Source: a virus. From it: 64,000 nt of DNA. The position numbers were made by a program, and so were the translations under genes. The notes under the pieces are model-generated. The model was not told the DNA's origin, searched no databases, and saw only the letters and a program-made list of their open reading frames with translations. Below, in pieces: positions 19,534-57,743 of this stretch (position 1 is the stretch's first letter; each line of letters opens with the position of its first letter). The stretch is from positions 32,001 to 96,000 of the IMG/VR virus record IMGVR_UViG_3300013947_000002, one strand, 5' to 3'.

Positions 19534-19562
19534 TTGACAAATGAAATCAAATATGCTATATA
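19534..19562 (+). promoter_or_regulatory. sigma70-type promoter whose -10 is embedded in a (TA)8 run
   Basis: TTGACA 19534-39, 17 nt spacer, TATATA 19557-62. The TA run spans 19557-19572. Confidence 0.55.
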
Positions 19563-19603
19563 TATATATATACGAGCCACAGATTTGGAGAGGAGAAACG
19601 AAA

Positions 19604-27256: not shown

Positions 27257-27285
27257 TTGACAAATCGCCGCTGTGGTGCTATACT
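27257..27285 (+). promoter_or_regulatory. sigma70-type promoter
   Basis: TTGACA 27257-62, 17 nt spacer, TATACT 27280-85. Confidence 0.65.
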
Positions 27286-27314
27286 TAAACCATCAAATAA
27301 AGGAGCTGAATGAT

Positions 27315-28151
27315 ATGAACGAACTATTTATTATGTCGCTTAAAGCAAAGCATCGTAGTGAGGGTACCATTCGCGAATATACCAAGGCGATCGAGAACTG
27401 CTTGTCGTATGTCAAGAAGCCTGAAACCGACATCAAGCCGATTGACCTTGAGTTGTGGCAGTCCAGCATGAGCAATCTTAGCTCTGCATCCGTAGCACAG
27501 CGCACATCGGCTGTTCGCGAGTATTTCAAGTTCTTGTATCGCAATGAATTTATCAGTCGCAATCCTGCTGATATGCTTGAAGCGCCGAGTATCAAGAATC
27601 GTGAGCAGTCGGCTCTTGATGGAGAGCAGGTCAGAGCGATGATTAACGCCGCAACAAATCTGCGTAACAAGGCGATTATTACGATGCTGGCTCAGACCGG
27701 TCTTCGCATCCATGAGCTTGCCAATATCACGCTTGAGCAGTATCAGAGCCGCAATGGTAATGTGTTGGTCATTCGTGGTAAGGGTGATAAGGATAGGCTG
27801 GTTGGCCTGGCTGATGAGACGATCAAGCTGATTGATAGCTATATTGCTAATGAGCGCAAAGACGGCTGCGAATACCTGTTCGTCGGCAATCGCGGCAATA
27901 AGATGGACGGCAAGAACACCAGTGCTATGCTCAAGGTGTGCGCTAAGAAGGCTGGTATTGAGAATTGGGAGGAGTTGCATATCAGCAATCATACGATGCG
28001 CCGCACGTTTGCTACGATGATGTCCGAAGCCGACGTACCTATTGAGATAATTAGTAAGGCAATGGGGCACTCAGGTTTGGCTATCACGTCCAGATACATC
28101 AAGCGCACCGAGCAGAGAGCGGTCAATGCTATGGCTGTTATGAGTTTTTAA
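27315..28151 (+). CDS. tyrosine recombinase/integrase (XerC/XerD-like)
   Basis: ATG 27315 behind aggag. GLRIHEL (Arg), HTMRRTFAT (HxxR), GHSGLAITSRYI (His...Tyr). Confidence 0.85.
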   Translation: MNELFIMSLKAKHRSEGTIREYTKAIENCLSYVKKPETDIKPIDLELWQSSMSNLSSASVAQRTSAVREYFKFLYRNEFISRNPADMLEAPSIKNREQSALDGEQVRAMINAATNLRNKAIITMLAQTGLRIHELANITLEQYQSRNGNVLVIRGKGDKDRLVGLADETIKLIDSYIANERKDGCEYLFVGNRGNKMDGKNTSAMLKVCAKKAGIENWEELHISNHTMRRTFATMMSEADVPIEIISKAMGHSGLAITSRYIKRTEQRAVNAMAVMSF

Positions 28152-32997: not shown

Positions 32998-33318
32998 ATG
33001 GAATACAATATTGGGGATATTATCAAGCTCAAGAATGATGCTGGTGTATTTAAGGTTGAAATTAAGAGAAAAATGGAAACAAATCAAGCCATTCAAGGAT
33101 ATGACGATGATTGCAGGTTTGATGGCGAGATGCGGCTCGAGGTGCATCATAGGGATTATGGTGAATATATCATCACTATGACGAGCCGTGAAGAATCTAA
33201 CGACACTGGTAGAATTATTGTATGCTGGCTTAATACTTGTAACGACGAGGTTGAATATTATCTTGGGCAGATTATTCAGTACGAAGAAAAAGAAGACGTG
33301 TTCGAGCTGATGAAGTGA
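32998..33318 (+). CDS. hypothetical protein
   Basis: Track ORF with SD aaggagg. Confidence 0.5.
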   Translation: MEYNIGDIIKLKNDAGVFKVEIKRKMETNQAIQGYDDDCRFDGEMRLEVHHRDYGEYIITMTSREESNDTGRIIVCWLNTCNDEVEYYLGQIIQYEEKEDVFELMK

Positions 33319-36300
33319 TGAGTAAGAATTATACGATTCTTCACCTTCATTCCATGCTGTCTAACGGTGTAACTAATATTGATTCAGTCACACGGTACGA
33401 CCAATATATAAATCGTGCCGCAGAGCTTGGCATGAAGGCTATTGCGTTCAGTGAACATGGGTCTGTTTTTCAGTGGGTTAGGAAAAAATTGTACGCCGAA
33501 GAAATGGGCTTAAAATTTATTGCAGCTGAAGAATTTTATCTAACTCAAACCCTATCAGAAAAAATTCGCGACAACTATCACTGTCTGCTTATCGCCAAGA
33601 ATTATGATGGCGTACTAGAGCTAAACAAGTTATCAACTAAATCATTCAATCGTGATGATAATTCATTCTACTATGTTCCGCGAATCACGATTGATGATGT
33701 GAAAAATACAAGCGACAATATTATCGTAAGCACGGCTTGCTTGGGCGGCGTTCTTAATAAAGCGCCAGATGATGTCAGATGGGATTTTTATCATTGGTTA
33801 TGTGAGCATAAAGATCGCTGTTTCCTTGAGATTCAGCCCCATCTTGACCCGGCTCAAAAGAGCTACAATAACACGCTATGGGCGCTATCCAAACAGAGCG
33901 GATTGCGGTTGTTAATGTGTACTGACACCCATGCGCTCAATTCTACCCATGTAGATGGGCGGCGCATTTTGCAGAAAGCCAAGAATATTCACTTTGATGG
34001 CGAAGACCGGTTTCACCTTGAGATGATGAACTACGATGAACTAGTTCAGCTATGCCGTATGCAAGATGTGCTTCCCATGGATGTGTATCTGGACGCTATC
34101 GAGATGACCAATACTGTGGCTGATATGGTTGAGCCGTTCGAGCTTGATTATAGCTATAAATATCCTCATCTATGGGGCGATGATAGCGAGGCTGTGCTTA
34201 GAGCTAAGATAGCAGATGGCATTAAATGGCGCGGCGTTGATAAACTATCTAATTATCAAGAATACCTAGACCGCATTGAATATGAAATGAAGGCGTACAT
34301 TCATAACGGCGCCATTGACTTTATGCTGCTCATGGAAGATATTGTTACTTGGTGTAGAACGCAAGATATTCAGATTGGATATGGGCGCGGCTCTTGCACC
34401 GGCAGTTTGATTGCTTACCTGCTTGGCATTACTGAGATGGATAGCATTAAGCATAAGCTTAATTTCGATCGCTTCATGAATGTCGAGCGCGTATCATTGT
34501 CTGATATCGACTCGGATATACCGCCTAACAGAATTGATGAAGTAAAGAATTATGTATTTAACAAGCATGGGTTGTATTGTGCCGATATTGTTACATTTAA
34601 TACCATTGCTCTAAAGGGTGCTATTCGGGATGTTGGTAGGGCACTTGAAATGTCGCTTGATGAGGTGGGCGATATTTGCAATAAGGTTGAACAAGACGAG
34701 GCCGGATGCCGCGCCAAATACCCAGAGCTATTTAAGTATGTAGATATTGTTAATGGTTGTGTTGTATCGGTTGGCAACCATCCATCAGGAATGATTGTTG
34801 CGCCGCATAGCATTGATGACTGCATGGGGTTATTTACTACAACAACCGATACCGTGCCAATCAGCCAAATCAATATGAAAGAGGTTGACTTGCAGAATTA
34901 TGTAAAGCTCGACTTGTTAAAGCTGATTACGATACAGATTATCAATGAGACGTGTAAGATGTGTGGAATTGAGCGCTTAACACCTGATAATATTGATGTT
35001 GCAGACAACGCCGTGTGGCGTTCTATCAGAGATGATACGACAGCAATATTTCAGTGGGAATCAGGCAGCGCAAGGCAGTATATAGCCAAGTTGCTATCAG
35101 ATACAACCATTGCCAAGTTGCGCAAGGTTCAGCCAGATATCGACTATATCACATTGCTGTCTATGGGCAATGGTGCGATTCGTCCTGCTGGTGCATCATA
35201 CCGCGATGAGCTTGCCAATGGCGATGTTCGCACATATGACAATGAGGCTATTAACCATTTCATGTCTGATACGTTCGGCTTTCTTATCTTCCAATGCCAG
35301 ATTATCGGATTTTTGCATAAATACTGCGGTTATACTATGGGCGAGGCCGATGTGGTGCGCCGCCATTTCGCCAAGAAGACGGGTACAGATAAGGATATAC
35401 CGCAAATTAAGGCTGGATTCGCTAAGACAATGGCTGAGCAATACGGCATGAGCCAAGAGCAATCTGATAAAACCATAGCGGATTTTATTCAGGTCATTGA
35501 GGATGCCAGCAATTACTTGTTCTCTCTCAACCATAGTCAGCCATATAGCTATGAGGGCTATGCAGAGGGATGGCTTAGATATTATTATCCGTTTCAGTTC
35601 TTGACAGTGTGCCTAAATGTCAATCAGGGCGACAATTCTGAGACATCGGCTCTGACCGCCTATGCTCATAAGATGGGCATTAAAATCAAGTCGCCGCGAT
35701 TCCGTCATTCTCGCTCGGATTATTTTTGCGATACTGCTGAAAATGTAATCTATAAGGGGCTTGGCTCAATTAAGTATATGAGCGCAGATGTGGCTGAAGC
35801 TCTGTATGGTATGCGCGATATGCAGTTTAAGAATTTTATTGATGTGCTGTTTGCCATCCAGCAGCTTGAATCAAAGCCTGATTCGCGCCAACTTGATATT
35901 CTAGTCAAGATCGGCTATTTTGACGAATTTGGCCCACCCAAAGCGCTATTGATTGGCATTGAGATTTTTAATAAATTTTCAAAATGCAAGACAATTAAAC
36001 TTGACAAATGGCGCGAAATAGGGTATAATGTAGATATGCTTGCGCCCTATGCCGGTAAGATGACGGATAAGACGGCGAGCCAGCTTGATAATCGTGGTAT
36101 TGTACTGGCCATCCTACGTTCAATGGAAATGCCAAAAACAACGATTATTGATAGGCTAAAATGGCAATCTGAGCTACTTGGCTATGTTGATACTTGTGAC
36201 CCTAAATCGCCCATTACAGATTGGCTTGTGCTTGATGTTAAGACAACTGGTTATGGCACGGTATATTGCCGCCTGTATAATATCAGCATTGGCATTGAGC

Positions 36301-36470
36301 GTGAAATGCGGGCGAATCGGCAATTTTGGGCTAAGAACAAATTAGAGCGTGGAGACGCAATTAGAGCTGTGACGCAAGAGAAAAATAAGATGAAAAAGGA
36401 TGAAAATGGTGAATGGGTGAGAACTAGTGAGGTTTACACCGAATTGAAATGCTGGTCTAGGATTGATTAA
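33315..36470 (+). CDS. dnaE: DNA polymerase III alpha subunit (PHP + PolIIIA core)
   Basis: ILHLHSMLSNGVTNIDS (PHP), GYGRGSCTGSLIAYLLGIT, SDIDSDIPPNR. 1051 aa. Confidence 0.9.
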   Translation: MMSKNYTILHLHSMLSNGVTNIDSVTRYDQYINRAAELGMKAIAFSEHGSVFQWVRKKLYAEEMGLKFIAAEEFYLTQTLSEKIRDNYHCLLIAKNYDGVLELNKLSTKSFNRDDNSFYYVPRITIDDVKNTSDNIIVSTACLGGVLNKAPDDVRWDFYHWLCEHKDRCFLEIQPHLDPAQKSYNNTLWALSKQSGLRLLMCTDTHALNSTHVDGRRILQKAKNIHFDGEDRFHLEMMNYDELVQLCRMQDVLPMDVYLDAIEMTNTVADMVEPFELDYSYKYPHLWGDDSEAVLRAKIADGIKWRGVDKLSNYQEYLDRIEYEMKAYIHNGAIDFMLLMEDIVTWCRTQDIQIGYGRGSCTGSLIAYLLGITEMDSIKHKLNFDRFMNVERVSLSDIDSDIPPNRIDEVKNYVFNKHGLYCADIVTFNTIALKGAIRDVGRALEMSLDEVGDICNKVEQDEAGCRAKYPELFKYVDIVNGCVVSVGNHPSGMIVAPHSIDDCMGLFTTTTDTVPISQINMKEVDLQNYVKLDLLKLITIQIINETCKMCGIERLTPDNIDVADNAVWRSIRDDTTAIFQWESGSARQYIAKLLSDTTIAKLRKVQPDIDYITLLSMGNGAIRPAGASYRDELANGDVRTYDNEAINHFMSDTFGFLIFQCQIIGFLHKYCGYTMGEADVVRRHFAKKTGTDKDIPQIKAGFAKTMAEQYGMSQEQSDKTIADFIQVIEDASNYLFSLNHSQPYSYEGYAEGWLRYYYPFQFLTVCLNVNQGDNSETSALTAYAHKMGIKIKSPRFRHSRSDYFCDTAENVIYKGLGSIKYMSADVAEALYGMRDMQFKNFIDVLFAIQQLESKPDSRQLDILVKIGYFDEFGPPKALLIGIEIFNKFSKCKTIKLDKWREIGYNVDMLAPYAGKMTDKTASQLDNRGIVLAILRSMEMPKTTIIDRLKWQSELLGYVDTCDPKSPITDWLVLDVKTTGYGTVYCRLYNISIGIEREMRANRQFWAKNKLERGDAIRAVTQEKNKMKKDENGEWVRTSEVYTELKCWSRID
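36001..36029 (+). promoter_or_regulatory. perfect consensus promoter inside the dnaE coding sequence
   Basis: TTGACA 36001-06, 17 nt spacer, TATAAT 36024-29. Confidence 0.45.
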
Positions 36471-41571: not shown

Positions 41572-43047
41572 TTGATATATGATGCAAATTCAGCACGTCT
41601 TTTATTAGGTTGTTTGCTAATCAAGCCCTCGCTTGCCATCTCCGATAAATACCCCCTGTCTAAAGCCGATTTTGAGCCAACGCCGTTCCATCTCCGTCTT
41701 TGGCAAGCGTGTGTAGCTCTTGCTCGTCGTGGAGCTGAGTCCATATCGAGCCTAGACATCTATATGCTATGTAAGAACAATAAGCAAGTAGAGGGTATAT
41801 TCAAGGCAAATCAACTTGACGATTTTATTGATACGGTCAAGCAACTTGCCAATGTCGGCAACTTTGACGTATATTACGCAAATGTGCGCCGGTGCACGTT
41901 GATTAGAGCGTATAAGGCGGCTGGGTACAATGTAGACAAATTTGAGCAAGATGACCAAGCATCCATTGAAGATATTGTACAGTGGTTTGACGCACAACAG
42001 ATAGCTATTAAAAAGACGTTCTATAAAGATAAGGATATTGACGAACTAAAGGCTGGTGATGGCTTTGAGGCGGTCAAAGAGGGCTTCAAATCAGAGCCGC
42101 TATTTGGCGCTACTACATTCAGCGAATATCTGAACACAGCGGCTAGAGGCTGGATTCCGGGACAGTTGTCAATCTATTCAGTCGGCTCAGGTATAGGTAA
42201 GTCAACTATCGGCTTGGCTAATCTTGTGCAAGTATGCTGTCCTAGAATCTATGATATAGACAAAGAGCAATATGTAGACAACCCATGCTATCAACATAAG
42301 GCCGGTCTGTATCTCCAATTTGAGATGGCTGGTGATACTGAAGTCACGCCTAAAATCGTGGCTACAATTAGCGGCGTACCATGCTTTAGCATTTTGAATG
42401 GCCGCTATGAAGAGGGCGAAGAAGAACGGGTAGACGAAGCGATTAAGATTCTGCATGAATCTAATCTGTATATCGTCACTATGCCTAATTATACGGTTGA
42501 CCTGATTGAATCATATGTCAAGGATTATGTGGTAAACCGAGGGGTCGGCTATTTGTGCTACGATTATATAGTCGAGTCAGCCTCAGTATCGAGCGATATT
42601 GCCAAAAAGAACGGTGTGGCTACACGGTCAGATCAGGTCTTATCAGGTATTGCAAGCAAGCTCAAGGATTTAGCCGTTGAATATAATATTGCCGTCCTTA
42701 CATTTACTCAAGTTAATGCCAATGCTATGACGCAAGAAATTATGGATAGTGGTGTTGCGGCTGGTTCTAGGGCGATTCAGAACAAGGCTGATATTGCTGG
42801 TGTTATTATGCCACTGCGCCATAAAGAACAGGACATAGCCGACATGGTGGCTGAAAAATATCCCGATAGAGTCAAGCCGAATCGTGTATTATCTGTCTAC
42901 AAAATGCGGTTCTCATCGGTTGAACAAGGCATCAAGATTTATTTTTATCTCGATTTGAATACAGGTAGAACTAAGGATTGTTTTATAACAACAAAATTTG
43001 ACCAGCTATATTCGCTCAGTAAGACAAGGTTGGTGTATGCTAAATAA
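41572..43047 (+). CDS. dnaB: DnaB-like replicative helicase
   Basis: N-terminus ARLLLGCLLIKPSL. Walker A YSVGSGIGKSTIG. RecA-like C-terminal domain. TTG start. Confidence 0.8.
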   Translation: MIYDANSARLLLGCLLIKPSLAISDKYPLSKADFEPTPFHLRLWQACVALARRGAESISSLDIYMLCKNNKQVEGIFKANQLDDFIDTVKQLANVGNFDVYYANVRRCTLIRAYKAAGYNVDKFEQDDQASIEDIVQWFDAQQIAIKKTFYKDKDIDELKAGDGFEAVKEGFKSEPLFGATTFSEYLNTAARGWIPGQLSIYSVGSGIGKSTIGLANLVQVCCPRIYDIDKEQYVDNPCYQHKAGLYLQFEMAGDTEVTPKIVATISGVPCFSILNGRYEEGEEERVDEAIKILHESNLYIVTMPNYTVDLIESYVKDYVVNRGVGYLCYDYIVESASVSSDIAKKNGVATRSDQVLSGIASKLKDLAVEYNIAVLTFTQVNANAMTQEIMDSGVAAGSRAIQNKADIAGVIMPLRHKEQDIADMVAEKYPDRVKPNRVLSVYKMRFSSVEQGIKIYFYLDLNTGRTKDCFITTKFDQLYSLSKTRLVYAK

Positions 43048-43729: not shown

Positions 43730-44056
43730 ATGATTCATATAAAAGTAAATGAGGAGCGCGAACAGGTGAATGTCCCGTATGCGCCTCCTCACTCATATGT
43801 TAAAAGCACAGAAACAATCTTGTCGTTCGATACTAAAGATGATTATGACAATTTTGTGGTAGAATCCCATGATAATGCAGATGGCTCTAAATATCTAAAG
43901 CTCGGTATCAATCTATATAAAGAGCCGGTTCGCTTGTGCCCTGCAATCACACACTATCTCAATGTTCAAACGTCTGATAATAAATCAGATGAGGAGCTAA
44001 TTCTTATTGGTACACAATATATTGAATTTGAAAAGATATATTTGAATCATGATTGA
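43730..44056 (+). CDS. hypothetical protein
   Basis: Track ORF with SD gagga. Confidence 0.5.
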   Translation: MIHIKVNEEREQVNVPYAPPHSYVKSTETILSFDTKDDYDNFVVESHDNADGSKYLKLGINLYKEPVRLCPAITHYLNVQTSDNKSDEELILIGTQYIEFEKIYLNHD

Positions 44057-45098
44057 TATTGCCTCTCTCAAATCCCAATTAACCGAAGACCGCATTATTG
44101 AGTTGCTTGATGCTCTAGGTGCTCCGTTGATGAAAGCGGATAGTAACAACCTTGTATTCCCGTCTATCTGCCACCAGAGCGACCCATTAGCCCATTCCGC
44201 TAAGCTCTGGCTATACCTCGACTCCATGCAATACAAGTGCTGGAGTTGTGGCTTTTCAGGTGATACCATATCTCTAGTTCAGCACGTCAAACATCTTGAC
44301 TTCAATCAAGCGATTACCTATATTTGCTCAACTCTAAATCTGCAAGTCGGTCAAATAGAGCAAAATGAGCAACTTGATAATTGGTCTGAATTGCGCCGAT
44401 TCTTACCAGATGCTGAGCCAGAGCCAGATAAGTTGGTTACATATGACCCAGCCGTCTTATCCCTATTTGACCACTTATACCCGCAAGATTGGCTAGATTA
44501 TGGGATAACGAAAGATATACTTGATAAATTCGGCGTAGGTTGGTATGCACGGCAAGCGTGTATTTCCATACCTGTAGTGTTTAATGGGCAACTGGTAGGT
44601 GTAAGGGGGAGATATACAAAAGAACAGGATGTAGCTAAAGGCAAGTATAGACCGATATGTACGCTTGATGGACAGGTGTTTAAATTCCCAAGCGGTGCTT
44701 GCTTTTATGGCTATGACCAGAATAGAGCAGCTATTGAAAAGTCGCGCCAAGTAGTGTTATTTGAATCAGAAAAAAGTGTGCTAAAGTCGCCCCAATATGG
44801 CATAGATAATGCTCTAGCCGTTTTTGGCTCTAATATTAGTAAGCGACATATTCAGCTATTGCTTGAGTTGGGTGTAAATGAGGTGGCGCTTGGCTTCGAC
44901 TCGGATTACCATATAGTGGGCGATGATGAATTTAGATTCTTTGCGACTAAGATGAAGAAGCTGGCGGCTAAGTTGCGTAGTTATTTTAACGTCTCGATTA
45001 TATATAACAATCAAGGCTATGATATGTATAAATGCAATATGATGGATATATCATATGAGCAAGCAATGAAGTTATGGGAAAGTAGGGTGAAAATTTAA
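44049..45098 (+). CDS. DnaG-like DNA primase (zinc finger + Toprim)
   Basis: CHQSD...CWSCGFSGD (CHC2). LFESEKSVLK and GFDSD (Toprim E and DxD). Confidence 0.8.
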   Translation: MIDIASLKSQLTEDRIIELLDALGAPLMKADSNNLVFPSICHQSDPLAHSAKLWLYLDSMQYKCWSCGFSGDTISLVQHVKHLDFNQAITYICSTLNLQVGQIEQNEQLDNWSELRRFLPDAEPEPDKLVTYDPAVLSLFDHLYPQDWLDYGITKDILDKFGVGWYARQACISIPVVFNGQLVGVRGRYTKEQDVAKGKYRPICTLDGQVFKFPSGACFYGYDQNRAAIEKSRQVVLFESEKSVLKSPQYGIDNALAVFGSNISKRHIQLLLELGVNEVALGFDSDYHIVGDDEFRFFATKMKKLAAKLRSYFNVSIIYNNQGYDMYKCNMMDISYEQAMKLWESRVKI

Positions 45099-45106
45099 TA
45101 TAGCTC

Positions 45107-45163
45107 TTGACAATCAACCTCCTTTGTGGTATAATCGCTATATCAACAATAAGGAGGTTGATT
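45107..45163 (+). promoter_or_regulatory. nested terminator/promoter/SD-hairpin cassette
   Basis: TTGACA 45107-12, 17 nt spacer, TATAAT 45130-35. Perfect 13 bp inverted repeat aatcaacctcctt (45112-24) / aaggaggttgatt (45151-63). The right arm contains the SD and is followed by TTTTATTT. Confidence 0.65.
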
Positions 45164-45169
45164 TTATTT

Positions 45170-46057
45170 ATGAGAGTATTATCGTTATTTGATGGGATTG
45201 CCTGTGGACGGTTGGCATTAGAAAGAGCTGGTATTAGAATCGATTCATATGATGCTTGGGAGATTGAAAAGAACGCAATTAAAGTCGCGGCGACCAATTA
45301 TCCAGACATTATAGAACACGGCGATGTAACAAAACAGGATTTTACAAAATATAAAGACAAGGTGGATTTGCTTATTGGAGGTTCGCCTTGTCAAGGATTC
45401 AGCTTTTCAGGTAGAATGCTGAATTTTAATGACCCTCGTAGCAAACTCTTTTTTGAATTTGTCAGAGCCATTGAAGAATGCAAGCCCAAATACTTTTTAC
45501 TTGAAAACGTTGTGATGAAACAGGAATGGCGAAACATCATTTCATCATATCTTGGAGTTGAGCCAATTGAAATAAATTCAGCACTTGTATCAGCTCAAAA
45601 TCGACGCAGATTGTATTGGACTAATATACCGAATGTAAATCAACCAAGAGATAAAAACATCAAACTAATTGACATTCTTGATGATAAATCAATGCTTAAT
45701 CCGGCCGCTATTCGTGGTCGTACAATTGTTGGGTATAATAAGAATACTGTTCAATGTCTTGAGGTTAGGTCTAAATACACTGACAAATCAAATTGTTTGA
45801 CAACCGTTGATAAGGACAATGTATTAACATCATTGTCACATGGTAGATATATTGACGTATTTAACAATACTTATCCGTGGCGATACTATACCACTGCGGA
45901 AATGTGTAGGTTACAAACATTGACAGATGATTATCTTAATATGATACCTGATAGCGCAGCGAGAAAAGCGCTTGGGAATGGATGGGCAGTGGATGTAATC
46001 ACACATATCTTCAGTTATTTACCAGATAAATATAAGATTGGAGGGGAGAAAGATTAA
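45170..46057 (+). CDS. dcm: C5-cytosine DNA methyltransferase
   Basis: LFDGIACG (I), GGSPCQGFS (IV), LLENV (VI), SAQNRRR (VIII), GNGWAV (X). Confidence 0.9.
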   Translation: MRVLSLFDGIACGRLALERAGIRIDSYDAWEIEKNAIKVAATNYPDIIEHGDVTKQDFTKYKDKVDLLIGGSPCQGFSFSGRMLNFNDPRSKLFFEFVRAIEECKPKYFLLENVVMKQEWRNIISSYLGVEPIEINSALVSAQNRRRLYWTNIPNVNQPRDKNIKLIDILDDKSMLNPAAIRGRTIVGYNKNTVQCLEVRSKYTDKSNCLTTVDKDNVLTSLSHGRYIDVFNNTYPWRYYTTAEMCRLQTLTDDYLNMIPDSAARKALGNGWAVDVITHIFSYLPDKYKIGGEKD

Positions 46058-46775
46058 AATTCATCCACTACTAGATTCCCTTAATGAAGCCACATTTTTA
46101 CGAGCATATTTACGTGTCTGTGGTATAGATGATGTTGATGCTTATCTGCATCCAGATAAGATTGAATATCAAAGCCCAGATATGTATAAGAATATGGATG
46201 TGGCTGTACTGCTACTTAAACAACATCTTACAAAAATGAGTAGAATCGCAGTTTTGTGCGACGAGGACGACGATGGCCTGTGTTCATGCGTTATCATTGC
46301 AGATATGCTTAAGCGGCTCAATGCTGAATATCGTATCTTCTTCCATACGGTTGCAAAGGCGCACGGTATTAGAGCCGACTCATCTGATAAGGTGCTGGAT
46401 GATATTCTTGAATATGCGCCATCTCTACTTATCATCCCAGACGCAAGCGCAGATAGAGAATCATGCCAGACGCTCAGAGAGCATGACTGTGACGTGCTTA
46501 TCCTAGACCATCATCTATATGATTTTTCAAATAATCCATACGCAGTTATTGTGAATTGTCTGCAACAGAGCGATACTAATCAATCAGCAAGTGGCGCATT
46601 GATAGCAAGCAAATTCGCCAATACCGTTCTGGGCAACGATAAAGACGAATATGCCGACCTTGTAGCCATGTCGCTTATTGGTGATGTTATGGATTTACGC
46701 GACCTAGAGAATAGAGCCTATATCAATCAATGGCAAAGAGATTATGAGAAGGCGGTGAGCAAGCCGAATGAATGA
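46038..46775 (+). CDS. DHH-family phosphoesterase, N-terminal (DHH) half of a RecJ/NrnA-like protein
   Basis: CDEDDDG and ILDHH motifs. Ends inside a (GAAT)3 repeat. Start uncertain (TTG 46038 or ATT 46053 after ggagg). Confidence 0.7.
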   Translation: MEGRKIKIHPLLDSLNEATFLRAYLRVCGIDDVDAYLHPDKIEYQSPDMYKNMDVAVLLLKQHLTKMSRIAVLCDEDDDGLCSCVIIADMLKRLNAEYRIFFHTVAKAHGIRADSSDKVLDDILEYAPSLLIIPDASADRESCQTLREHDCDVLILDHHLYDFSNNPYAVIVNCLQQSDTNQSASGALIASKFANTVLGNDKDEYADLVAMSLIGDVMDLRDLENRAYINQWQRDYEKAVSKPNE

Positions 46776-46777
46776 AT
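46766..46777 (+). repeat. (GAAT)3 tetranucleotide repeat at the DHH/DHHA1 ORF junction
   Basis: ccGAATGAATGAATtttt. It holds the stop of ORF 1 and the ATG of ORF 2. Removing one unit fuses the frames (PNEFLTYMVEK). Confidence 0.85.
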
Positions 46778-47703
46778 TTTTGACCTATATGGTAGAGAAG
46801 TTGGGCAAAGGTAGGCCGCCCTCTCCAACAAACGTGTCTTGGAACGTTGTGCCCAAGATTAACGCCGTTTTCCGAAATGGTACACAAGATGATAGGGCTG
46901 TGCTGATTGACGGCTTTATGGGCAACGTAGAGCCTGAGACGGCTATTAAGGTTGCTACTCGTTGCCATAGTAAACAAACGCGAGAGGTCAAAGCGCTGTT
47001 CGATTCGGCTATTAACAATCTCAACATTTATAAAAATTGCGTCGTAGCAATGATTAATAATAAACACAAAGAATATACTGGTCTATTGGCTAATAAGCTA
47101 ATGTCCAAATATAATAAGACTGCATTTGTGTTTAGAAAATTAGACCCATGCACTCTATCAGGTAGTTATCGCTCGCCTGTTGATATTATTGATTTACTCA
47201 ATGATAGCGGCTTAATCAAAGCGCAGGGTCACGGTTGTGCCGCTGGTTGCTTCTTGAAGGTGTCAAATGCCAAGCGATTCGTCAAGTGGTTTGACGAACA
47301 ACAGATTGATATGGCTGGCGTTGTTGAGGTTGCGGCAAGTATTGAACCAAGTCAAATTACACACGCGCTATGTCAAATTTGTGTGGACAATGAAGGCTTG
47401 TTCGGACAGGGGTGCCCCAAGCCACTATTCCATTGTACTTTAACAACTCCACAGATTTATGTATATCGTAATCGCTCAACTACTGTCAAGCTGATTCAGG
47501 ACGGCATTGAGTTCATTAAATTCTTTGTTAACAATGAAGAAGTAAGTCAGTTTGAGGCGGCACAGGGCAAATCCATAGAGGTTGTGGTATCTCTTGGATT
47601 GAATGAATATAATGGGCAAATTAAGCCGCAAGCAATAATCGAGCGATATGAAATTGTAGATAAGAAAAACGATGAATTTGATTGGGAAAGGATTTTTCAA
47701 TGA
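46768..47703 (+). CDS. DHHA1 half of the RecJ/NrnA-like phosphoesterase
   Basis: VVPKINAVFRNG linker motif. QGHGCAAG (GGGH-like DHHA1 motif). Confidence 0.7.
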   Translation: MNEFLTYMVEKLGKGRPPSPTNVSWNVVPKINAVFRNGTQDDRAVLIDGFMGNVEPETAIKVATRCHSKQTREVKALFDSAINNLNIYKNCVVAMINNKHKEYTGLLANKLMSKYNKTAFVFRKLDPCTLSGSYRSPVDIIDLLNDSGLIKAQGHGCAAGCFLKVSNAKRFVKWFDEQQIDMAGVVEVAASIEPSQITHALCQICVDNEGLFGQGCPKPLFHCTLTTPQIYVYRNRSTTVKLIQDGIEFIKFFVNNEEVSQFEAAQGKSIEVVVSLGLNEYNGQIKPQAIIERYEIVDKKNDEFDWERIFQ

Positions 47704-48773
47704 TTTACCTAGAATATGCAGCAACTAATTCATTCACCAAGTATCCGTCTAGCAGGTACGGCCCGTTCTTGAACCCTAATGCCAATTATGCTTACAGAGA
47801 GCAGAAGTTGCTTGATGAATGCAGAGATAGGGTAAAGGCGACTATTGGTGCAAAGAGTGGCAAAGTTATATTTGGTGGTACAAGTAGCCAGTTGATTGAA
47901 AATTTGATGAATCGTGCCAAGCGGAACACGGTAATCTGTTCAAAATACGAGCATGACAGTTTTTGGAGATACGGCTTTGATTCTATTGGAAATATCGATG
48001 AGTTACCAAATATTATTTCTGATACACCAGAAAGCTACGGAAAAATGCTTGTCATGTGGCAGGGTGTGAATAATATCACAGGTCAGATTTTTCCCATTGA
48101 GCAAATCGGCAATATGTGCCACAGCTATAATGCGTTCTTCATCTGCGACATGACGGCCATGATTGGAAAGGTGGCGATTCCTGACAATATTGACCAGTGG
48201 TGCGATATTGCTGTGTGGAGCGGCCATAAGCTAGCCACCGAGGGCGGCATTGGTTGTATGTGGCTATCTGACAGGTTTAATGAATGGCTGGGCGGCTTCA
48301 AGCTACGTGGTACGCCTAATCTGGCTGGGGCTTGTGCTATTGCAGATGCTACAGAGGATGCTTGTCAGAACGTAGATGCACATGAAGAATATTGCTATGA
48401 GCTATATCGCTATTTGCTTGCCGAGCTATCAGCTAATGGTATTTATGGCGGCGTTGTCAACTCAGCTATGAAACCAGACAAATCCGATGCTACAGAAAGA
48501 GCGCCTAGTACGTATGCTATCAATGCTATCATGCTTGACAATATCAATGCCGATAGTCTACAACAGTATCTAGCGTCGCAGTCTATTTATATTGGGATTG
48601 GTGGCTCTGCCTGTTCGAGCCTACATGATTTTAGAGTGCTTAATGCTTGCGGCTTGACAAATAATGAGGCAAGCAGAGTTATTAGAGTATCGTTTGATTA
48701 TGATACGGATAAGCAAGATATTGACGATTTGGTGTATAATATTAAACAATATAAGGAGAAGTTTGTAGGATGA
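47700..48773 (+). CDS. NifS/IscS/DndA-type cysteine desulfurase (PLP, class V aminotransferase fold)
   Basis: IYLEYAATN, VIFGGTSSQ, SKYEHDS, VNNITGQIFPI, WSGHKL (PLP Lys), LRGTPNLAG, GIGGSACSS (catalytic Cys loop), IRVSFDYDTDKQDID. ATGA overlap upstream. Confidence 0.85.
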   Translation: MIYLEYAATNSFTKYPSSRYGPFLNPNANYAYREQKLLDECRDRVKATIGAKSGKVIFGGTSSQLIENLMNRAKRNTVICSKYEHDSFWRYGFDSIGNIDELPNIISDTPESYGKMLVMWQGVNNITGQIFPIEQIGNMCHSYNAFFICDMTAMIGKVAIPDNIDQWCDIAVWSGHKLATEGGIGCMWLSDRFNEWLGGFKLRGTPNLAGACAIADATEDACQNVDAHEEYCYELYRYLLAELSANGIYGGVVNSAMKPDKSDATERAPSTYAINAIMLDNINADSLQQYLASQSIYIGIGGSACSSLHDFRVLNACGLTNNEASRVIRVSFDYDTDKQDIDDLVYNIKQYKEKFVG

Positions 48774-49834
48774 ACCATACAAAGGAAGATTTGAAAGAGC
48801 TACAATCTAAATCTCTTGAAGAAAAAGTACAGATTAGCTTGGCCCGTATTATTGAATGGCATGAACATTGGGATGGTAAGGTGTATATCTCTAATTCTGG
48901 CGGCGTTGACTCTACTGTCCTCAGTCACCTAGTCCATTCCATATATCCCGATGTACCAGATGTGTATTGTGATACTGGGCTTGAATATCCTGAATTACGC
49001 GATTTTATTATGAGTAAGCCAAATGTGGTTGTTCTAAAGCCTAAAATGAATTTTGTTGAAGTAATTAAAAAGTATGGTTATCCAATTATTTCAAAAGAGG
49101 TTGCATCTGTTATATCTCAAGCACGAAAAGGCAATAATTGGGGGTTGCATAAAATAAATGGGAAGAAAACAAATGGGCAAGACGATGCCTATGGAAAAGC
49201 TATGATGAAGTGGAAGTTTCTACTTGATGCCGATTTTAATGTTGATAATTATTGTTGTAAGGAAATGAAGAAAAAACTTGCGTATAAATATGAGAAAGAA
49301 AGTGGGTTAAAAGCGTTTGTCGGTACGATGACAGATGAGTCATTATTAAGAAAAACGGAATGGCTAAAACATGGCTGCAATGCCTTTGATGGTAATCGTC
49401 CAATTTCGACTCCGCTATCATTTTGGACTAAATCCGACGTACTGCATTATATTGTCAAATATAACATCCCATATGTCAAAGAAATCTATGGTGACATCAT
49501 AGAAAAAGATGGTGTATATACCACAACCAAACAAAAGCGCACAGGTTGCATTTTCTGTGGCTTTGGTTGCCATCTTGAAAAAGAGCCAAACAAATTCCAA
49601 ATATTAGCTAATATCAATCCTCATCTCTACGACTACTGTATGCGTGGCGGCAAATACAACGAATCTGGCATGTGGATTCCTGACAAGGGACTTGGTATGG
49701 CTAAAGTGTTAGATTATATCAATGTCAAATGGTGGAACGATGGCGATGAAGCCAAGCGAGACGACTATAGAGCAAAATATAAGGAGAAAGAAAAAATTGA
49801 GCAGAGCAGAACGCAACCGCCGCAAGAAGATTGA
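48770..49834 (+). CDS. PP-loop ATPase of the PAPS-reductase family (DndC/SspD/IbrA-like)
   Basis: YISNSGGVDSTVL (PP-loop), PLSFWTKSDVLHYI, RTGCIFCGFGCH Cys cluster, long C-terminal extension. ATGA overlap with the desulfurase. Confidence 0.8.
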   Translation: MNHTKEDLKELQSKSLEEKVQISLARIIEWHEHWDGKVYISNSGGVDSTVLSHLVHSIYPDVPDVYCDTGLEYPELRDFIMSKPNVVVLKPKMNFVEVIKKYGYPIISKEVASVISQARKGNNWGLHKINGKKTNGQDDAYGKAMMKWKFLLDADFNVDNYCCKEMKKKLAYKYEKESGLKAFVGTMTDESLLRKTEWLKHGCNAFDGNRPISTPLSFWTKSDVLHYIVKYNIPYVKEIYGDIIEKDGVYTTTKQKRTGCIFCGFGCHLEKEPNKFQILANINPHLYDYCMRGGKYNESGMWIPDKGLGMAKVLDYINVKWWNDGDEAKRDDYRAKYKEKEKIEQSRTQPPQED

Positions 49835-50302: not shown

Positions 50303-50566
50303 ATGCAAGATATACTTACCTACACAGCATGGCTCGATGTGGCATGCGACATCTGTAATAGCTTGTTGAAAGCAACTGTAACTATTGTAGATAATGAATT
50401 TAAGGTTGTGGCGAGTAAATATAGATGGGTTACATTTATCAGTACAGAGCGAATCCACTATGTATATAATAAAGGATGGGAACCAGCTTGGGGTGCAACC
50501 GAACTCATGAAGATGATTATTGACGATTGGGATATGTTGCTGGTTGATGCAGTACATGGGCGGTAA
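50303..50566 (+). CDS. hypothetical protein
   Basis: Track ORF. Confidence 0.5.
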   Translation: MQDILTYTAWLDVACDICNSLLKATVTIVDNEFKVVASKYRWVTFISTERIHYVYNKGWEPAWGATELMKMIIDDWDMLLVDAVHGR

Positions 50567-50667
50567 GAGCCGCATTTCTAAACAAATTTCGGAGGTATTG
50601 AATAATGCGTTATATGGGCGGAAAGAGCCGAATCAGCAAGCAGATCGCGAATGTGCTGAACGGCGCA
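50553..50667 (+). repeat. tandem codon-diverged duplication of the Dam N-terminal motif, in two frames
   Basis: 50553-50609 encodes YMGGKSRISKQISEVLNNA. 50611-50667 encodes YMGGKSRISKQIANVLNGA. The 58 nt offset shifts the frame by +1. Confidence 0.85.
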
Positions 50668-51345
50668 ATGAGAGAGAGAGAGAGAGAGAGAGCATTCGTA
50701 AGCCTGTTCTGTGGCTCATGCGCCATTGAGTCAAAGGTACAAGCAGACGTTAAAATCCTCAATGACAAGCACTCCTATCTCATTGCTATGTGGCAAGCGT
50801 TACAGAATGGCTGGATGCCACCTGATGTAGTGACCAAGGAAGAATATTATCACGTTAAAGCCAATATGGACGAAGACCCTGCTTTGACCGGATTTGTCGG
50901 CTTTGGTTGCTCATTCGGCGGCAAATGGTGGGGTGGCTATGCTAAAGATAAACGTGGCGATGATTACTGCGGTCAGGCAAAGCGCAGCTTGATGCGCAAC
51001 TATGTGGGTAAAGCCAAGTCTACTTTACAAAAAGATTTATCTGGTCTACAGATCGCTACATTCACTTGTCTTGATTATAAAGATGTAGAAATCCCAGATG
51101 GCGCGGTTGTATATTGTGATCCACCTTATGCAAACACAACGGGTTATACATTAGGCAAATTTGATACAGATGAATTTTGGGATTATATGCGCCAGCTATC
51201 TAAGCGATGTGATGTATATATCAGTGAGGAATCCGCGCCTGATGATTTTGAATGTGTCTGGAGCAAAGAGAAAGTAAGGACGCTTGAAAAGAGCGACAAT
51301 GTGAGTCGCGTCAAAGTAGAAAAATTATTTAAGTGTAAAGGTTAA
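50605..51345 (+). CDS. dam: Dam-type N6-adenine DNA methyltransferase (D12 class) with an internal (AG)11 tract
   Basis: MRYMGGKSRISKQI, FVSLFCGSCAIE (motif I-like), VVYCDPPYA (DPPY). SD ggagg 50591-95. Confidence 0.85.
   Translation: MRYMGGKSRISKQIANVLNGAMRERERERAFVSLFCGSCAIESKVQADVKILNDKHSYLIAMWQALQNGWMPPDVVTKEEYYHVKANMDEDPALTGFVGFGCSFGGKWWGGYAKDKRGDDYCGQAKRSLMRNYVGKAKSTLQKDLSGLQIATFTCLDYKDVEIPDGAVVYCDPPYANTTGYTLGKFDTDEFWDYMRQLSKRCDVYISEESAPDDFECVWSKEKVRTLEKSDNVSRVKVEKLFKCKG
50671..50692 (+). repeat. (AG)11 dinucleotide repeat inside the dam CDS
   Basis: Direct count: agagagagagagagagagagag, translated as RERERER. Confidence 0.95.
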
Positions 51346-51351
51346 AATATT

Positions 51352-53520
51352 ATGCCAAAAGCAAAACTACTCCCACAGCGATTCTTATACCGTGACACCA
51401 AGACCGATTTTGCCATCCTGTCATGTAAGCTGGTTAATCCTGTTGCCGGTATAGAGACGCACCCTGTATATCACAACCTAACATTGAAAGGTGCGAATAT
51501 AGCCAACTTTGAGCTGAATCGCCGCATTGACTGTATCATCGAGCCAATCATTGATGAGAAGCATCCATACAGCTATAAATTTATCAGCTTTGGCTCGTTT
51601 GAGGCAAAAGGCGGCAAATTCAAGTTGACAGAGAAACAGGAGTTACAGGCTCTACGCAGCTTGATGACGAATAGACAGGCTGAATCATGCCATGCCGCCT
51701 ACCCTCACTTTGTCAGTATGGTGCTAAATGGCGAACAAGAACAAATCGACCCAAGCAAAATCAAGTATGTGAAGAACGTGCTGTTAAACCGTTATATCGC
51801 CAAAATCAAGTCAATCAATAACCGCATCGCATTTATGGAAGAAGCGGCTAAATGGTCTATTGAATCCGATGAGAACCTGAATAAGATTGCGGCGCGATAC
51901 GGCAATATTGACGAGTTCAAAGAGGACATTGAACAGAACCCATACAACGTGCTTATGGACGTGTTGGATTGGGGCTGGACAAGGGCTGATAAGGCGGTAA
52001 TGAAATATGCGCCATCTCTTGCTTGTTCATTAAATAGAGCCGAAGCCGCCTGTATCTATCTACTCAAGCGAAATGAGGATGATGGCAACACGCGAATCGG
52101 CGCATCTGAGCTATTTGACCAGTTTGTGTCTCTATGCCCCGAATCGGTTAGTTATATCTATGAGGCAGTCACTACATCGTCTAAAATTTACTATGAGCCA
52201 GAGCGCAAGTATGTAAGCCGCAAATCGACCTATATGGCGGAATGCCATGTAGCTGAGGTCGTGAAGAAAAAAATAGCCAATCCACATTATTATCCTATGA
52301 ATTGGCAGAAGTTTACAAGCGTAGACGGATTAGATCTGACAGATGAACAATCACAGATTCTTGAGATGGCTTGTAAACAGGACGTAATGATGTTGACGGG
52401 GAGTGCCGGTTCTGGTAAGAGTCAGACACTCAAGGCCATTATTGAGATGCTTGAAGCTAACAACTATGGCTATACACTGCTAGCTCCAACAGGAATCGCC
52501 GCAAAGAGGATGCGTGAGGCAACAAGTCGTGAAGCCAGCACCATTCATATGTTCTTGCTGAGTGAAGCGATGGCGGGCGATTATGTGTTGATTGACGAAT
52601 CTGGCATGGTTGCAGTTGACCTGCTATCCGCTCTATTCAATAAGCTCAATGACAATACCAAACTCATCTTTATTGCAGACCCATCTCAACTTGCTTCTAT
52701 CTCATGTGGCAATGTTGTGCGCGATCTGCTTGATGGCGGCATCGTGCCTGTATGTAACTTAACCAAGGTGTTCAGATACAACACGTCTGGTATCATAACC
52801 ATTGCTACTGATGTACGAAATGGTGATAGTAGCCATCTGACAGATACTTTCACGGATTATAAGTTTGTTGAAATTGATACATTACCAATCAAGCAAATTG
52901 AGCGAGAATATGCGGCGCTGTTGGCTAGTGGCTATGGGCAGGATGATATATTGATTCTGTCGCCATTCAATAAGGGGCAATGCGGCTCATTGGTTATCAA
53001 CAATTATATCCAAGATAAATTTAACCCAAATCCACCTACAGATGTTGGCTGGACGATGAATGGTGTAGAAGTCAAGTTCCGTGTTGGTGATAAGGTCATC
53101 AATAAAAAGAATGAATATCGTATGCCGCTTGCCGATAGAGATGATACGGCGTTTGTAGCTAATGGCGACATGGGGCGCATCGTGGATATTGAGCCTGATG
53201 ATAAAATGCCACAGATGGTCGTGCATTTTGATTGCGGTGATTGCCTGGTTGATAAGGCGCATATCAGTAGAATGTTGCTAGGATATTGTATCAGCACACA
53301 TAGCAGCCAGGGCTGTCAAGCAAAGGCGGTGATTGTGGTGGTAGATAGAAGCCATATGCGGCTTATTTCGCGTAACCTGCTATACACTGGGGTGTCAAGG
53401 GCGCAAGAGCGGCTAGTAGTAATTGGCGATATGGAGGCGATTGAGGCAGGACTAAATGTGCAGGAAGAAAAATGTAGGAATACGTGGTTGAGAGAGGTGT
53501 TAAAGGATGGCGTTGATTAA
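51352..53520 (+). CDS. RecD-like SF1 helicase
   Basis: MLTGSAGSGKSQTL (Walker A), VLIDESGMV (Walker B). C-terminus ISTHSSQGCQAKAV...LLYTGVSRAQ. Confidence 0.8.
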   Translation: MPKAKLLPQRFLYRDTKTDFAILSCKLVNPVAGIETHPVYHNLTLKGANIANFELNRRIDCIIEPIIDEKHPYSYKFISFGSFEAKGGKFKLTEKQELQALRSLMTNRQAESCHAAYPHFVSMVLNGEQEQIDPSKIKYVKNVLLNRYIAKIKSINNRIAFMEEAAKWSIESDENLNKIAARYGNIDEFKEDIEQNPYNVLMDVLDWGWTRADKAVMKYAPSLACSLNRAEAACIYLLKRNEDDGNTRIGASELFDQFVSLCPESVSYIYEAVTTSSKIYYEPERKYVSRKSTYMAECHVAEVVKKKIANPHYYPMNWQKFTSVDGLDLTDEQSQILEMACKQDVMMLTGSAGSGKSQTLKAIIEMLEANNYGYTLLAPTGIAAKRMREATSREASTIHMFLLSEAMAGDYVLIDESGMVAVDLLSALFNKLNDNTKLIFIADPSQLASISCGNVVRDLLDGGIVPVCNLTKVFRYNTSGIITIATDVRNGDSSHLTDTFTDYKFVEIDTLPIKQIEREYAALLASGYGQDDILILSPFNKGQCGSLVINNYIQDKFNPNPPTDVGWTMNGVEVKFRVGDKVINKKNEYRMPLADRDDTAFVANGDMGRIVDIEPDDKMPQMVVHFDCGDCLVDKAHISRMLLGYCISTHSSQGCQAKAVIVVVDRSHMRLISRNLLYTGVSRAQERLVVIGDMEAIEAGLNVQEEKCRNTWLREVLKDGVD

Positions 53521-56202: not shown

Positions 56203-57743
56203 GCGCTGAATATCTAGCAGGTACAATCAATTCAATCGGCCCGTCGCAGTATGGCGGTGCTTGTAACCTCGGCTCATTGTTCCTTCATAATTTTGTTCGT
56301 AATCCATTTACTAAACAGGCACATCTTGATACTGAAGCCCTACGCGATACAATTTCTATTGCTGTCCGTATGCTTGATGATATTATTGATGTCAATAAAT
56401 TCCCCGACAAGATTTATGAGAATTATCAGAGGGGTATGCGCACCATTGGTATTGGTATTACAGGTCTAGCTGATATGCTTGCTATGCTAGGCATGAAGTA
56501 TGACAGTCAAAAAGCAAGAGATTATGTTGAATCTCTAATGCAAATGATTACAAATGCTGAATATTATGCCTCTGTGCAACTTGCTAAAGAAAAGGGTTGT
56601 TTTCCTCTGTGTGAGCCCGACAAGCATATTGACGGCGCATATGTCAAGGACGTCCTAGAAAAAGACGTACTCGATGAAATGGCCGAGTACGGTATTCGCA
56701 ATGCCAAGATTCAAGCCGTTGCCCCATGTGGCACAATCTCTATAGTATTCGGGAACAACTGCTCTAGCGGCATTGAGCCGATTTTCTCTCTGAGTTATGA
56801 CCGCAAGGCAAAGATTGGCGGTCAGGATGATAAGGATGTCAAAATCGTCAAGATGATGGACTACGCTTATTATCTATATCATAAGCTGAAAGATGAAGGC
56901 AAGCTCCTAGATTTTGATGAACATGATATTTTCCCAACCGCTCTCAATATGTCTGTTGATGACCATGTAGCTATGCTTGCCATTATTAGCAAATACACCG
57001 ACATGAGCGTTAGCAAGACAATCAACGTTCCTACTGAAGCATCGTTTAATGAAGTCAAGGACATTTATATGCAATGCTGGGAAAAAGGCATTAAGGGTTG
57101 CACCATCTTTAGACCTAATGCTATTCGTCAGGGCATTTTGCTGACTGATAATAAGCAAGGCGAAGAAAAATCTGAATCGATGGAACCACCAACTCTCCCT
57201 CGCGGTTCAATCATCGAGCCAAGCAATGACCTGATTGGCAAAAAGCGCAAGATTCAGACAGGATGTGGCAGCTTACACGTCATCGGCTTCTTTGACCCCA
57301 TTGATGGCAGTCTACAAGAGGTATATTTCAACAAAGGCTCGACAGGCGGATGCCAGAATTTCATGGTTGGTCTGAGTCGCGCAATCAGCCTACTATGCCG
57401 TGCCGGTGTAGATATTATGACCATCAAAGACCAGCTTGATTCAACAGGTGTATGCCCCTCTTATGCTACGCGCAGAGCAACCAACCATGATACCAGTAAG
57501 GGGTCTTGTTGCCCCATGGCTATTGGCAATGCTCTAGTTGATATGTATAATGAGATGCAAGCAGAGCTAGATGATAAAGAGGATGACGATAAGCCGGTAA
57601 AGAAAGTACCGATTAAATCCGAGATTGGCAAAGTAAACGTATTAAATACGAACAATGGTGTATGCCCTGAATGTGGCGAACCGCTTGTGTTTGAGGGCGG
57701 TTGCTGCACCTGTAAGTCATGTGGATATACAAAGTGCGAATAA
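56203..57743 (+). CDS. nrdJ: NrdJ exon 3
   Basis: YGGACNLGSLFLHNFV...TGLADML...APCGTISI...C-terminal Cys cluster CPECGEPLVFEGGCCTCKSCGYTKC. Confidence 0.8.

Follow-up and report, generated by a model that had tools for sequence, protein, structure and literature searches.

A phage-encoded Dam-like DNA methylase gene with an intragenic repeat and a twice-encoded N-terminal motif: a candidate three-state phase-variable switch

Introduction

The window analysed here, a 64,000-nucleotide stretch of viral DNA (positions 32,001 to 96,000 of IMG/VR virus record IMGVR_UViG_3300013947_000002), carries a gene for a D12-class, Dam-like N6-adenine DNA methyltransferase in which an AG dinucleotide repeat lies between an N-terminal motif and the catalytic body, and in which the segment bearing this motif is encoded twice, in two reading frames. 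Judged by comparison with related loci, the gene is probably a contingency locus whose expression state would be set by the length of the intragenic repeat. A first-pass annotation, made from the letters alone, had described the locus as a possible multi-state phase-variable switch, and the comparative data presented below speak in favour of such a switch.

In the proposed mechanism, slipped-strand mispairing during replication would add or remove AG units, and each change would shift the frame of all of the sequence upstream of the repeat relative to the catalytic body. Because this upstream segment holds a motif taken to be indispensable, it would be encoded twice, in two frames, each with a start codon. 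With a tract of n units (11 in the window), the start at 50605 (ATG2) would be in frame and give a short enzyme of 246 amino acids (aa). With n + 1 or n − 2 units, the start at 50547 (ATG1) would be in frame and give a long enzyme that takes its motif from the upstream copy (copy 1) and that contains a linker, in which the downstream copy (copy 2) is read out of frame as about 20 disordered residues, followed by (RE)n. With n − 1 or n + 2 units, no motif-bearing start would be in frame and the gene would be OFF, reversibly so because the open reading frame (ORF) of the body remains intact. The frames were recomputed for the window, and the arithmetic of the first-pass annotation for +1, −2 and −1 AG units was reproduced: (AG)12 or (AG)9 joins ATG 50547 to the body as a 266-aa protein, and (AG)10 or (AG)13 leaves no in-frame start bearing the motif. 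Both isoforms would be expected to methylate DNA, and the states would be heritable yet reversible, with switching within phage populations. The two ON states may differ in expression level, since copy 2 has an ATG and a GGAGG and copy 1 often has a weaker start codon.

The repeat and the duplicated N-terminus

The features of the locus are listed below in order of position.

50303..50566, plus strand: upstream ORF of 87 aa and unknown function, ending at TAA 50564-66, 17 nucleotides (nt) downstream of ATG 50547; overlaps copy 1
50547..50609, plus strand: copy 1 of the N-terminal module, MQYMGGKSRISKQISEVLNNA, with the alternative start ATG1; in the +1 frame relative to the methylase body
50547..50729, plus strand: copy-1 reading frame at (AG)11, a 60-aa ORF through copy 2 and the repeat, ending at TGA 50727-29
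50591..50595, plus strand: Shine-Dalgarno (SD) sequence GGAGG for ATG 50605, inside copy 1, where it is encoded as Ser-Glu-Val
50605..50667, plus strand: copy 2 of the N-terminal module, MRYMGGKSRISKQIANVLNGA, with the start ATG2
50605..51345, plus strand: D12-class (Dam-like) N6-adenine DNA methyltransferase, short form, 246 aa, ATG start; in frame in the window (ON from ATG2), with the N-terminal motif YMGGK at residues 3-7
50670..50692, plus strand: (GA)11.5 / (AG)11 simple sequence repeat, 100% matches in TRF (Tandem Repeats Finder), read as RERERER
50695..50721, plus strand: motif I region FVSLFCGSC, the S-adenosylmethionine-binding loop after strand beta-1; FCGSC is residues 35-39
51118..51129, plus strand: catalytic motif IV, DPPY, residues 172-175, aligning with DPPY of T4 Dam

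The repeat sits between YMGGKSRISKQI and FVSLFCGSC, that is, in the loop joining the N-terminal YxGGK motif to motif I; shuffling of the window gives an expectation of 0.00 even for (AG)8. Upstream of the repeat, the first 20 codons are duplicated with an offset of 58 nt and in different frames, so that ATG1 and ATG2 lie 58 nt apart in two frames ahead of the repeat. The two copies are identical at 41/63 nt, and their differences are mostly synonymous. A DNA pattern describing this dual module matched once in the window and 0.00 times in shuffles.

These results bear out the first-pass annotation in each of its observations. It had placed the AG tract within the dam ORF (confirmed by the ORF call, Pfam and TRF), a second, codon-diverged N-terminus 58 nt upstream in another frame, the SD of ATG 50605 within that upstream copy, and an upstream-copy frame that crosses the tract and stops at 50729. 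The third-frame stops that it had named, at 50579, 50603 and 50657, are all present, and every coordinate that it gave is correct.

Identity and predicted structure of the methylase

By profile, motifs and fold, the window gene is a Dam-like N6-adenine methylase, and its activity is predicted accordingly. The ORF matches Pfam PF02086 (D12 N6-adenine methyltransferase) with 63.1 bits against a cutoff of 22. Among solved structures the best sequence match is T4 Dam, and Foldseek placed E. coli Dam, T4 Dam and DpnM at the top of its matches (probability 1.00, TM-scores of 0.5-0.6), which indicates a Dam-type fold. YMGGK, FCGSC and DPPY are invariant across three alignments (A1, A4 and A5), and all can be aligned to T4 Dam; the motif I region, the first conserved element 3' of the repeat, aligns with FVDLFCGGLSV of that enzyme. 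In an AlphaFold2 (AF2) model of the short form, with a mean predicted local distance difference test (pLDDT) score of 77.9, the repeat spans the last part of the first helix together with the loop that leads into strand beta-1.

The segment upstream of the repeat (YxGGKSRI and the following helix) is taken to be indispensable for the enzyme on the basis of its invariance in the alignments and of the structures of T4 Dam and E. coli Dam, which we assume to support an essential N-terminal motif. A literature search for a citable source on the role of the Dam N-terminal motif found none.

Exactly the window protein is encoded on three contigs in the range of 50-200 kb; one of them, 88.5 kb long, comes from SRR1747043. 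Among GenBank phages, a DNA search with the locus gave no match and the protein-level matches were all below 60% identity; by these searches, the phage has no close relative in culture.

Related loci and their frame states

Related loci and proteins are designated by L and P numbers, respectively. Loci were collected with a degenerate DNA pattern (copy 1 YxGGK, GGAGG, ATG and copy 2 YxGGK, with the 58-nt offset), which returned 45 metagenome contigs, mainly from the human gut with some from anaerobic digesters, and two contigs of metagenome-assembled genomes (MAGs) labelled Clostridia and Oscillospiraceae. A stricter pattern for the junction returned six IMG/VR contigs, and the dual module was found in about 50 loci overall. 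Protein similarity revealed the same architecture in more distant viral contigs (L008, L010, L023 and L025-L027). The first-pass annotation had left room for the upstream copy to be a private scar of the window; its recurrence with the same offset in 6 IMG/VR, 45 metagenome and 2 MAG loci shows otherwise.

In nearly all dual-module loci a repeat lies between copy 2 and motif I. The repeats there are (GA)n/(AG)n of 9-29 nt, (TA)n (L078, L086 and L117) or G7-G9 (L087, L093, L098 and L105), and interrupted tracts occur in L114 and L013-L021. A poly-G lineage with its tract in the same loop is in frame with G9 (L011 and L012) and out of frame with G10 (L022 and L028).

All three frame states occur naturally. 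In a set of 47 non-redundant loci, the body is in frame with copy 2 in 22 loci, with copy 1 in 11 loci and with neither copy in 14. These counts do not differ from 1:1:1 (chi-square p ~0.13; the loci are not independent). The body, from motif I to the stop, is full length (204-210 aa) in 12/14 OFF loci; the exceptions are L088, with a body shortened to 178 aa, and L091, which is cut by the contig end. The repeat-free loci L025-L027 and L111 are fixed in the copy-1 state with 262-aa ORFs. In the related loci, the third frame contains 0-5 stops within copy 2 and 1-8 over the stretch between ATG1 and the repeat.

These observations bear on two alternative explanations. In the first, the upstream copy would be a scar left by duplication or recombination and the AG tract either neutral or due to chance, or else the entire layout would be an artefact of assembly. 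The mosaic structure of the window and L109 around the methylase gene and the absence of both features from the nearest body relatives, described below, are in keeping with this explanation. However, it is contradicted by the recurrence of an identical 58-nt offset in about 50 independent gut and digester assemblies, where the chance expectation is zero, by the presence of the exact window protein on three contigs, and by the signatures of selection at codons 8, 9 and 11 of copy 1 and in the stop-free copy-1 frame across copy 2; it is hardly credible.

In the second, the RE repeat would be a tolerated low-complexity tract and the second N-terminus would rescue expression after slippage, buffering the gene so that it stays ON. 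A full-length enzyme is available in two of the three frames, the length of (RE)n varies freely in frame, and the repeat lies in a surface loop of the AF2 model. However, OFF consensus sequences make up 14/47 loci, mostly with intact bodies, and the state counts are indistinguishable from equality. Furthermore, repeat loss is easy and has occurred, as the interrupted tracts attest, yet long perfect tracts of three chemistries persist at this site. Buffering of this kind is rather improbable.

Some further arrangements were seen among the relatives. In some lineages the N-terminus is duplicated in tandem and in frame (proteins P0300 and P0150); the second copy of P0150 (NQCGKPKIS) seems to be decaying. 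In L002, L008, L023, L025, L095 and L114, the C-terminus of a second D12-like methylase lies directly upstream, as in tandem methylase genes.

Tract-length variation

The tract is hypermutable between otherwise identical contigs. Differences in its length, accompanied by differences in frame state, were found in four lineages whose flanks are 98-100% identical. The tract is 23 nt in L083 and L085 and 15 nt in L104, with flanks identical at 600/600 and 400/400 positions; it is 17 nt in L008 and L076 and 15 nt in L010 and L091, again with flanks of 600/600 and 400/400 (for L091, only 120 nt of the body is available); and it is 20 nt in L079 and 22 nt in L113, with flanks of 598/600 and 392/400. 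In the repeat-free pair L025 and L092, the flanks are 100% identical and a 4-nt insertion, TAAC, in L092 changes the copy-1 frame to the copy-2 frame.

For the lineage of the window, the sole length comparison is with L109, its nearest dual-module relative. Between ATG1 and a point about 60 nt beyond the repeat, the two sequences show no difference apart from the tract itself, which is 23 nt in the window and 25 nt in L109, where there is also a small difference at its 3' edge. Beyond this block, the upstream gene is about 75% and the methylase body 87% identical. Because an identical block lies between diverged flanks, the 5' part of the gene must have been exchanged by recent recombination. 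The AG copy number, which the first-pass annotation had proposed to score in phage populations and related contigs, thus varies both between identical-flank loci and between the window and L109.

A further explanation is that a single genotype yields the two isoforms, through programmed ribosomal frameshifting or transcriptional slippage on the repeat rather than through switching of the DNA. Repeats can favour polymerase slippage, and poly-G variants occur in the relatives. However, length variants covering all of the states are seen directly in DNA, and an RNA element, frameshift stimulator or programmed frameshift site was rejected: Rfam gave no match, and folding of 50530-50730 gave z = +0.64, that is, no stable structure. 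To our knowledge, (GA)n is not a known slippery site. This explanation is very improbable.

Selection on the two N-terminal copies

In most lineages copy 1 has its own SD at normal spacing, and its first codon in the relatives is ATG, TTG, ATT or ATA. Three of its codons that the search pattern leaves free (8, 9 and 11) stay Ser, Arg and Ser through TCA, AGC or AGT and AGA or CGN codons. For copy 1, the ratio of nonsynonymous to synonymous polymorphism (pN/pS) comes to 0.25 when its own frame is read and exceeds 1.9 in both other frames; these ratios are biased by ascertainment through the pattern and carry supporting weight only, and for this reason the weight is placed on the pattern-free codons and on synonymous resampling. 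Codons 15-17 of copy 1 read TCG/GCG-GAG-GTN in 31/31 unique modules, where the GGAGG is demanded by the pattern.

Copy 2 carries complementary signatures. The copy-1 frame is free of stops across copy 2 in 27/27 unique modules, compared with 6.3 (23%) expected from synonymous resampling of copy 2 using the codon usage of the genes themselves. In addition, the glycine at codon 6 is encoded by GGT in 0/27 copies 2 versus 17/27 copies 1 (Fisher p = 3.6e-7), and GGT is the commonest glycine codon in the gene bodies. GGT would be avoided at this position of copy 2 because GGT-AAG gives TAA in the copy-1 frame. Taken together, these codon patterns show both starts and the read-through from copy 1 to be under selection, as far as this can be judged from sequence, and by the same standard copy 2 is shown to be coding in two frames, its own and that of the stop-free linker.

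In a number of lineages the first codon of copy 1 is ATT or ATA, preceded by a good SD (GAGGTGAT or AAAGGT). These are L081, L083-L085, L088-L090, L094, L099-L101, L103, L104, L108, L110 and L112, with L073, L077, L096 and L106 as further cases. Gene callers choose an upstream GTG (MIAIQYLGGK...) in these lineages. The ATT and ATA codons may be deliberately weak, non-canonical starts.

Natural long forms

Fusion of the upstream copy to the methylase body, which the first-pass annotation had predicted for a changed tract length, occurs in nature as intact ORFs of 251-268 aa in many protein clusters. A search with an N-terminal profile returned only proteins of at most 156 aa (fragments), and a full-length long-form query was used for this reason. 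In a collection of 5.8 billion proteins, 65 of the top 120 clusters matching this query are full-length long forms of 251-268 aa, laid out as copy 1, linker, (RE)n or Gn, and body. Single clusters at 90% identity mix long, short and body-only gene calls, and (RE)n varies in length. RefSeq proteins are among the members of these clusters: WP_270760192.1 (Ruminococcus bicirculans) is a long form and WP_410082018.1 (Ruminococcus sp.), present on 424 contigs, is a short form.

For P0251, a long form that occurs naturally, AF2 modelling with an alignment of 49 long forms gave a mean pLDDT of 80.4 and a predicted TM-score (pTM) of 0.81. For residues 1-10 and 11-20, the pLDDT values were 52 and 87 in the long form and 54 and 90 in the short form, and a helix starts from residue 7 in both. 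Residues 28-44, the linker derived from out-of-frame reading, are the sole part with pLDDT below 50. The model fits a canonical Dam fold with a disordered insert.

Weighing the three-state reading

Several points weigh against the three-state reading. Most of the loci were found with a pattern that presupposes both copies, and the loci are not phylogenetically independent. The pLDDT values give nothing direct on the docking of copy 1 and, without coordinates, are no proof of it. The nearest relatives of the methylase body (P0001-P0120, whose aligned representatives are 83-89% identical, and L001-L007, 74-81%) have neither the repeat nor copy 1, and their loop reads AIDKNTP or similar; because the closest body relatives carry neither element, the device must be dispensable and mobile by recombination. 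In the window itself, no SD precedes ATG 50547 (the sequence before it ends in ...ctggttg). Compared with L109, the window is missing 14 nt before ATG1 that hold an SD (GAGGAG) and a TGATG stop-start overlap. Since ATG 50547 lacks an SD, the long form here would need termination-reinitiation coupling to the ORF at 50303..50566. The long-form state may thus be weak in this phage, and the window may effectively be nearer to a two-state switch than its relatives are.

The remaining alternative is a plain two-state ON/OFF switch in which copy 1 would be a leader ORF that tunes or couples expression from ATG2, or a relic kept for its SD. The SD of ATG2 is located within copy 1; in the ATG2 state the copy-1 frame ends just past the repeat, often at the TAA of ...GAGTAA; ATG1 of the window is without an SD; the copy-1 start codon is weak (ATT, ATA or TTG) in some lineages; and the single-copy poly-G lineage (L011/L012 versus L022/L028) works as a simple ON/OFF switch. 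However, a leader ORF would need neither YxGGKSRI nor an open frame past ATG2, and copy 1 keeps the motif despite heavy synonymous change. Furthermore, copy 2 shuns codons that would stop the copy-1 frame, and intact long-form ORFs are abundant, including those of the repeat-free lineages fixed in that state (L025-L027 and L111). A two-state switch with a non-enzymatic copy 1 is therefore considered unlikely, and a contingency locus with two alternative ON frames is the preferred reading.

Genomic context

The methylase gene lies within a phage replication module, and the dual-module locus L081, on a 266-kb contig, has a replication neighbourhood of the same kind. The ORF at 50303..50566 gave no match in a Pfam search, and a homologue of it precedes dam in L001-L007 and L109. 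The other genes considered in the window are as follows.

27273-28151: tyrosine integrase (Phage_integrase and SAM-like N domain)
33315-36470: large DNA polymerase (phrog_405)
41572-43047: DnaB-like helicase
44049-45098: primase
45107-46057: C5 cytosine methylase
46038-47703: RecJ-like exonuclease, two ORFs
47682-48773: class-V aminotransferase (cysteine-desulfurase-like)
48770-49834: protein with a 3'-phosphoadenosine-5'-phosphosulfate (PAPS)-reductase-like domain
51352-53520: RecD-like helicase
56277-57743: ribonucleotide reductase

In view of the integrase, the phage may be temperate, or the integrase may be used for other recombination; a tRNA scan found none. Of all palindromic tetramers in the window, GATC is depleted most strongly, with 40 observed and 268 expected (ratio 0.15), followed by GGCC (ratio 0.36). 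Such avoidance of GATC is the mark of restriction acting on the very sequence that is normally modified by enzymes of the Dam family.

Three side observations concern other genes. The two RecJ-like ORFs overlap by 8 nt (ATGAATGA, 46768-46775) and correspond to the two halves, N- and C-terminal, of a single PHROG family; no repeat was found at their junction. The aminotransferase and PAPS-reductase pair just upstream of dam recalls DndA/DndC, a hint that the phage may have another pathway of DNA modification. Finally, a (TA)8 tract at 19557-19572 follows TTGACA (19535-40) and lies upstream of an SD and ATG 19605. The region 19535-19607 resembles a promoter with a −35 element and a (TA)n −10 element, and the tract is a possible promoter-spacer repeat. 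The gene starting at ATG 19605 encodes a putative cell-wall hydrolase (a weak Hydrolase_2 match of 24.2 bits, below the cutoff of 27) with an N-terminal hydrophobic segment.

Implications

The benefit of switching would be one of bet-hedging: methylated progeny would evade methylation-sensitive restriction and unmethylated progeny would evade methylation-dependent restriction, and in lysogens switching could give the host epigenetic heterogeneity. We give even chances to the broader proposal that large phages of gut Clostridia (Ruminococcus/Oscillospiraceae) have evolved a three-state (high, low and off) epigenetic bet-hedging device that produces bursts of mixed methylation and, possibly, host phasevarions in lysogens.

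If this broader proposal is true, no phase-variable gene for DNA modification would have been described from phages before this one, and the locus would be among the rare instances in which overlapping-frame coding has been selected in the service of a contingency locus. In bacteria, phase-variable methylases are central to epigenetic heterogeneity and to anti-phage defence; a phage-side version, in an enzyme of counter-defence, would turn these roles around and bring an element of chance into the arms race of restriction and anti-restriction in the human gut. The locus would also illustrate a design for a repeat located downstream of an essential motif, in which the motif is duplicated in another frame and the codons of the second copy are adjusted to leave both frames free of stops. 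In practical terms, RefSeq labels these genes plainly as 'DNA adenine methylase' of varying length, and methylation-based host linking in metagenomes could be confounded if these methylases switch.

Comparison with known systems

A literature search for a phage-encoded phase-variable methylase found no prior description, an absence that is no proof of novelty, and returned only bacterial phasevarions, Campylobacter phage poly-G tracts and the constitutive prophage methylase PamA. Five aspects of the present locus appear to be new: a phage-borne orphan Dam-like methylase with putative phase variation through a simple sequence repeat, the duplication of a catalytic-motif segment in a second frame, the demonstrable dual coding of copy 2, the recurrence of three repeat chemistries at one loop, and the wide distribution in gut metagenomes of a device annotated as ordinary methylases.

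We know of no phase variation in T4 Dam. This enzyme (1yf3) and S. aureus PamA (cited in PMC13076061) share with the window gene the D12 fold, the YxGxK, FxGxG-like and DPPY motifs and, as far as PamA is described there, the nature of a phage-borne orphan; neither has a repeat or a duplicated start. PamA is presented as a constitutive prophage Dam-like methylase, and the passages on it mention no phase variation (PMC13076061).

Campylobacter phages carry hypermutable poly-G tracts (Sorensen et al. 2021, Cell Rep 35:109214, cited in PMC12823448). As summarized in the citing paper, they resemble the present locus as phage contingency loci in which slippage gives phenotypically mixed progeny. In contrast, the tracts in that summary act on receptor-binding and structural genes and change host range via adsorption, with neither a DNA-modification enzyme nor an alternative-frame N-terminus.

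In bacterial N6-adenine methylases of Type III (mod), Type I and Type IIG systems, repeat slippage shifts the frame and turns expression ON or OFF (PMC5909438, PMC7383803, PMC13076061). The likeness of the phage gene to these phasevarion methylases (Type III mod, Type I hsdM/hsdS and Type IIG) lies in a frame-shifting intragenic repeat within an N6-adenine methylase gene. However, the phasevarion methylases are chromosomal, associated with restriction-modification, found in host-adapted pathogens and limited to two states, whereas the phage gene is an orphan D12/Dam-like methylase in the replication module of gut Clostridia phages with a second predicted ON state via the duplicated N-terminus. 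Membership of the phasevarions is not claimed for it.

The closest parallel in the use of two starts is licA (lic1) of H. influenzae, in which two of the three frames have a start codon ahead of the repeat, so that two repeat phases are ON and one is OFF (PMC2212159). Both genes have start codons in two frames upstream of an intragenic repeat. However, licA needs merely start codons upstream of its (CAAT)n tract, whereas the segment upstream of the repeat in the phage gene encodes an invariant catalytic motif; therefore, a segment of about 19 codons would have had to be duplicated in a second frame, with copy 2 dual-coded.

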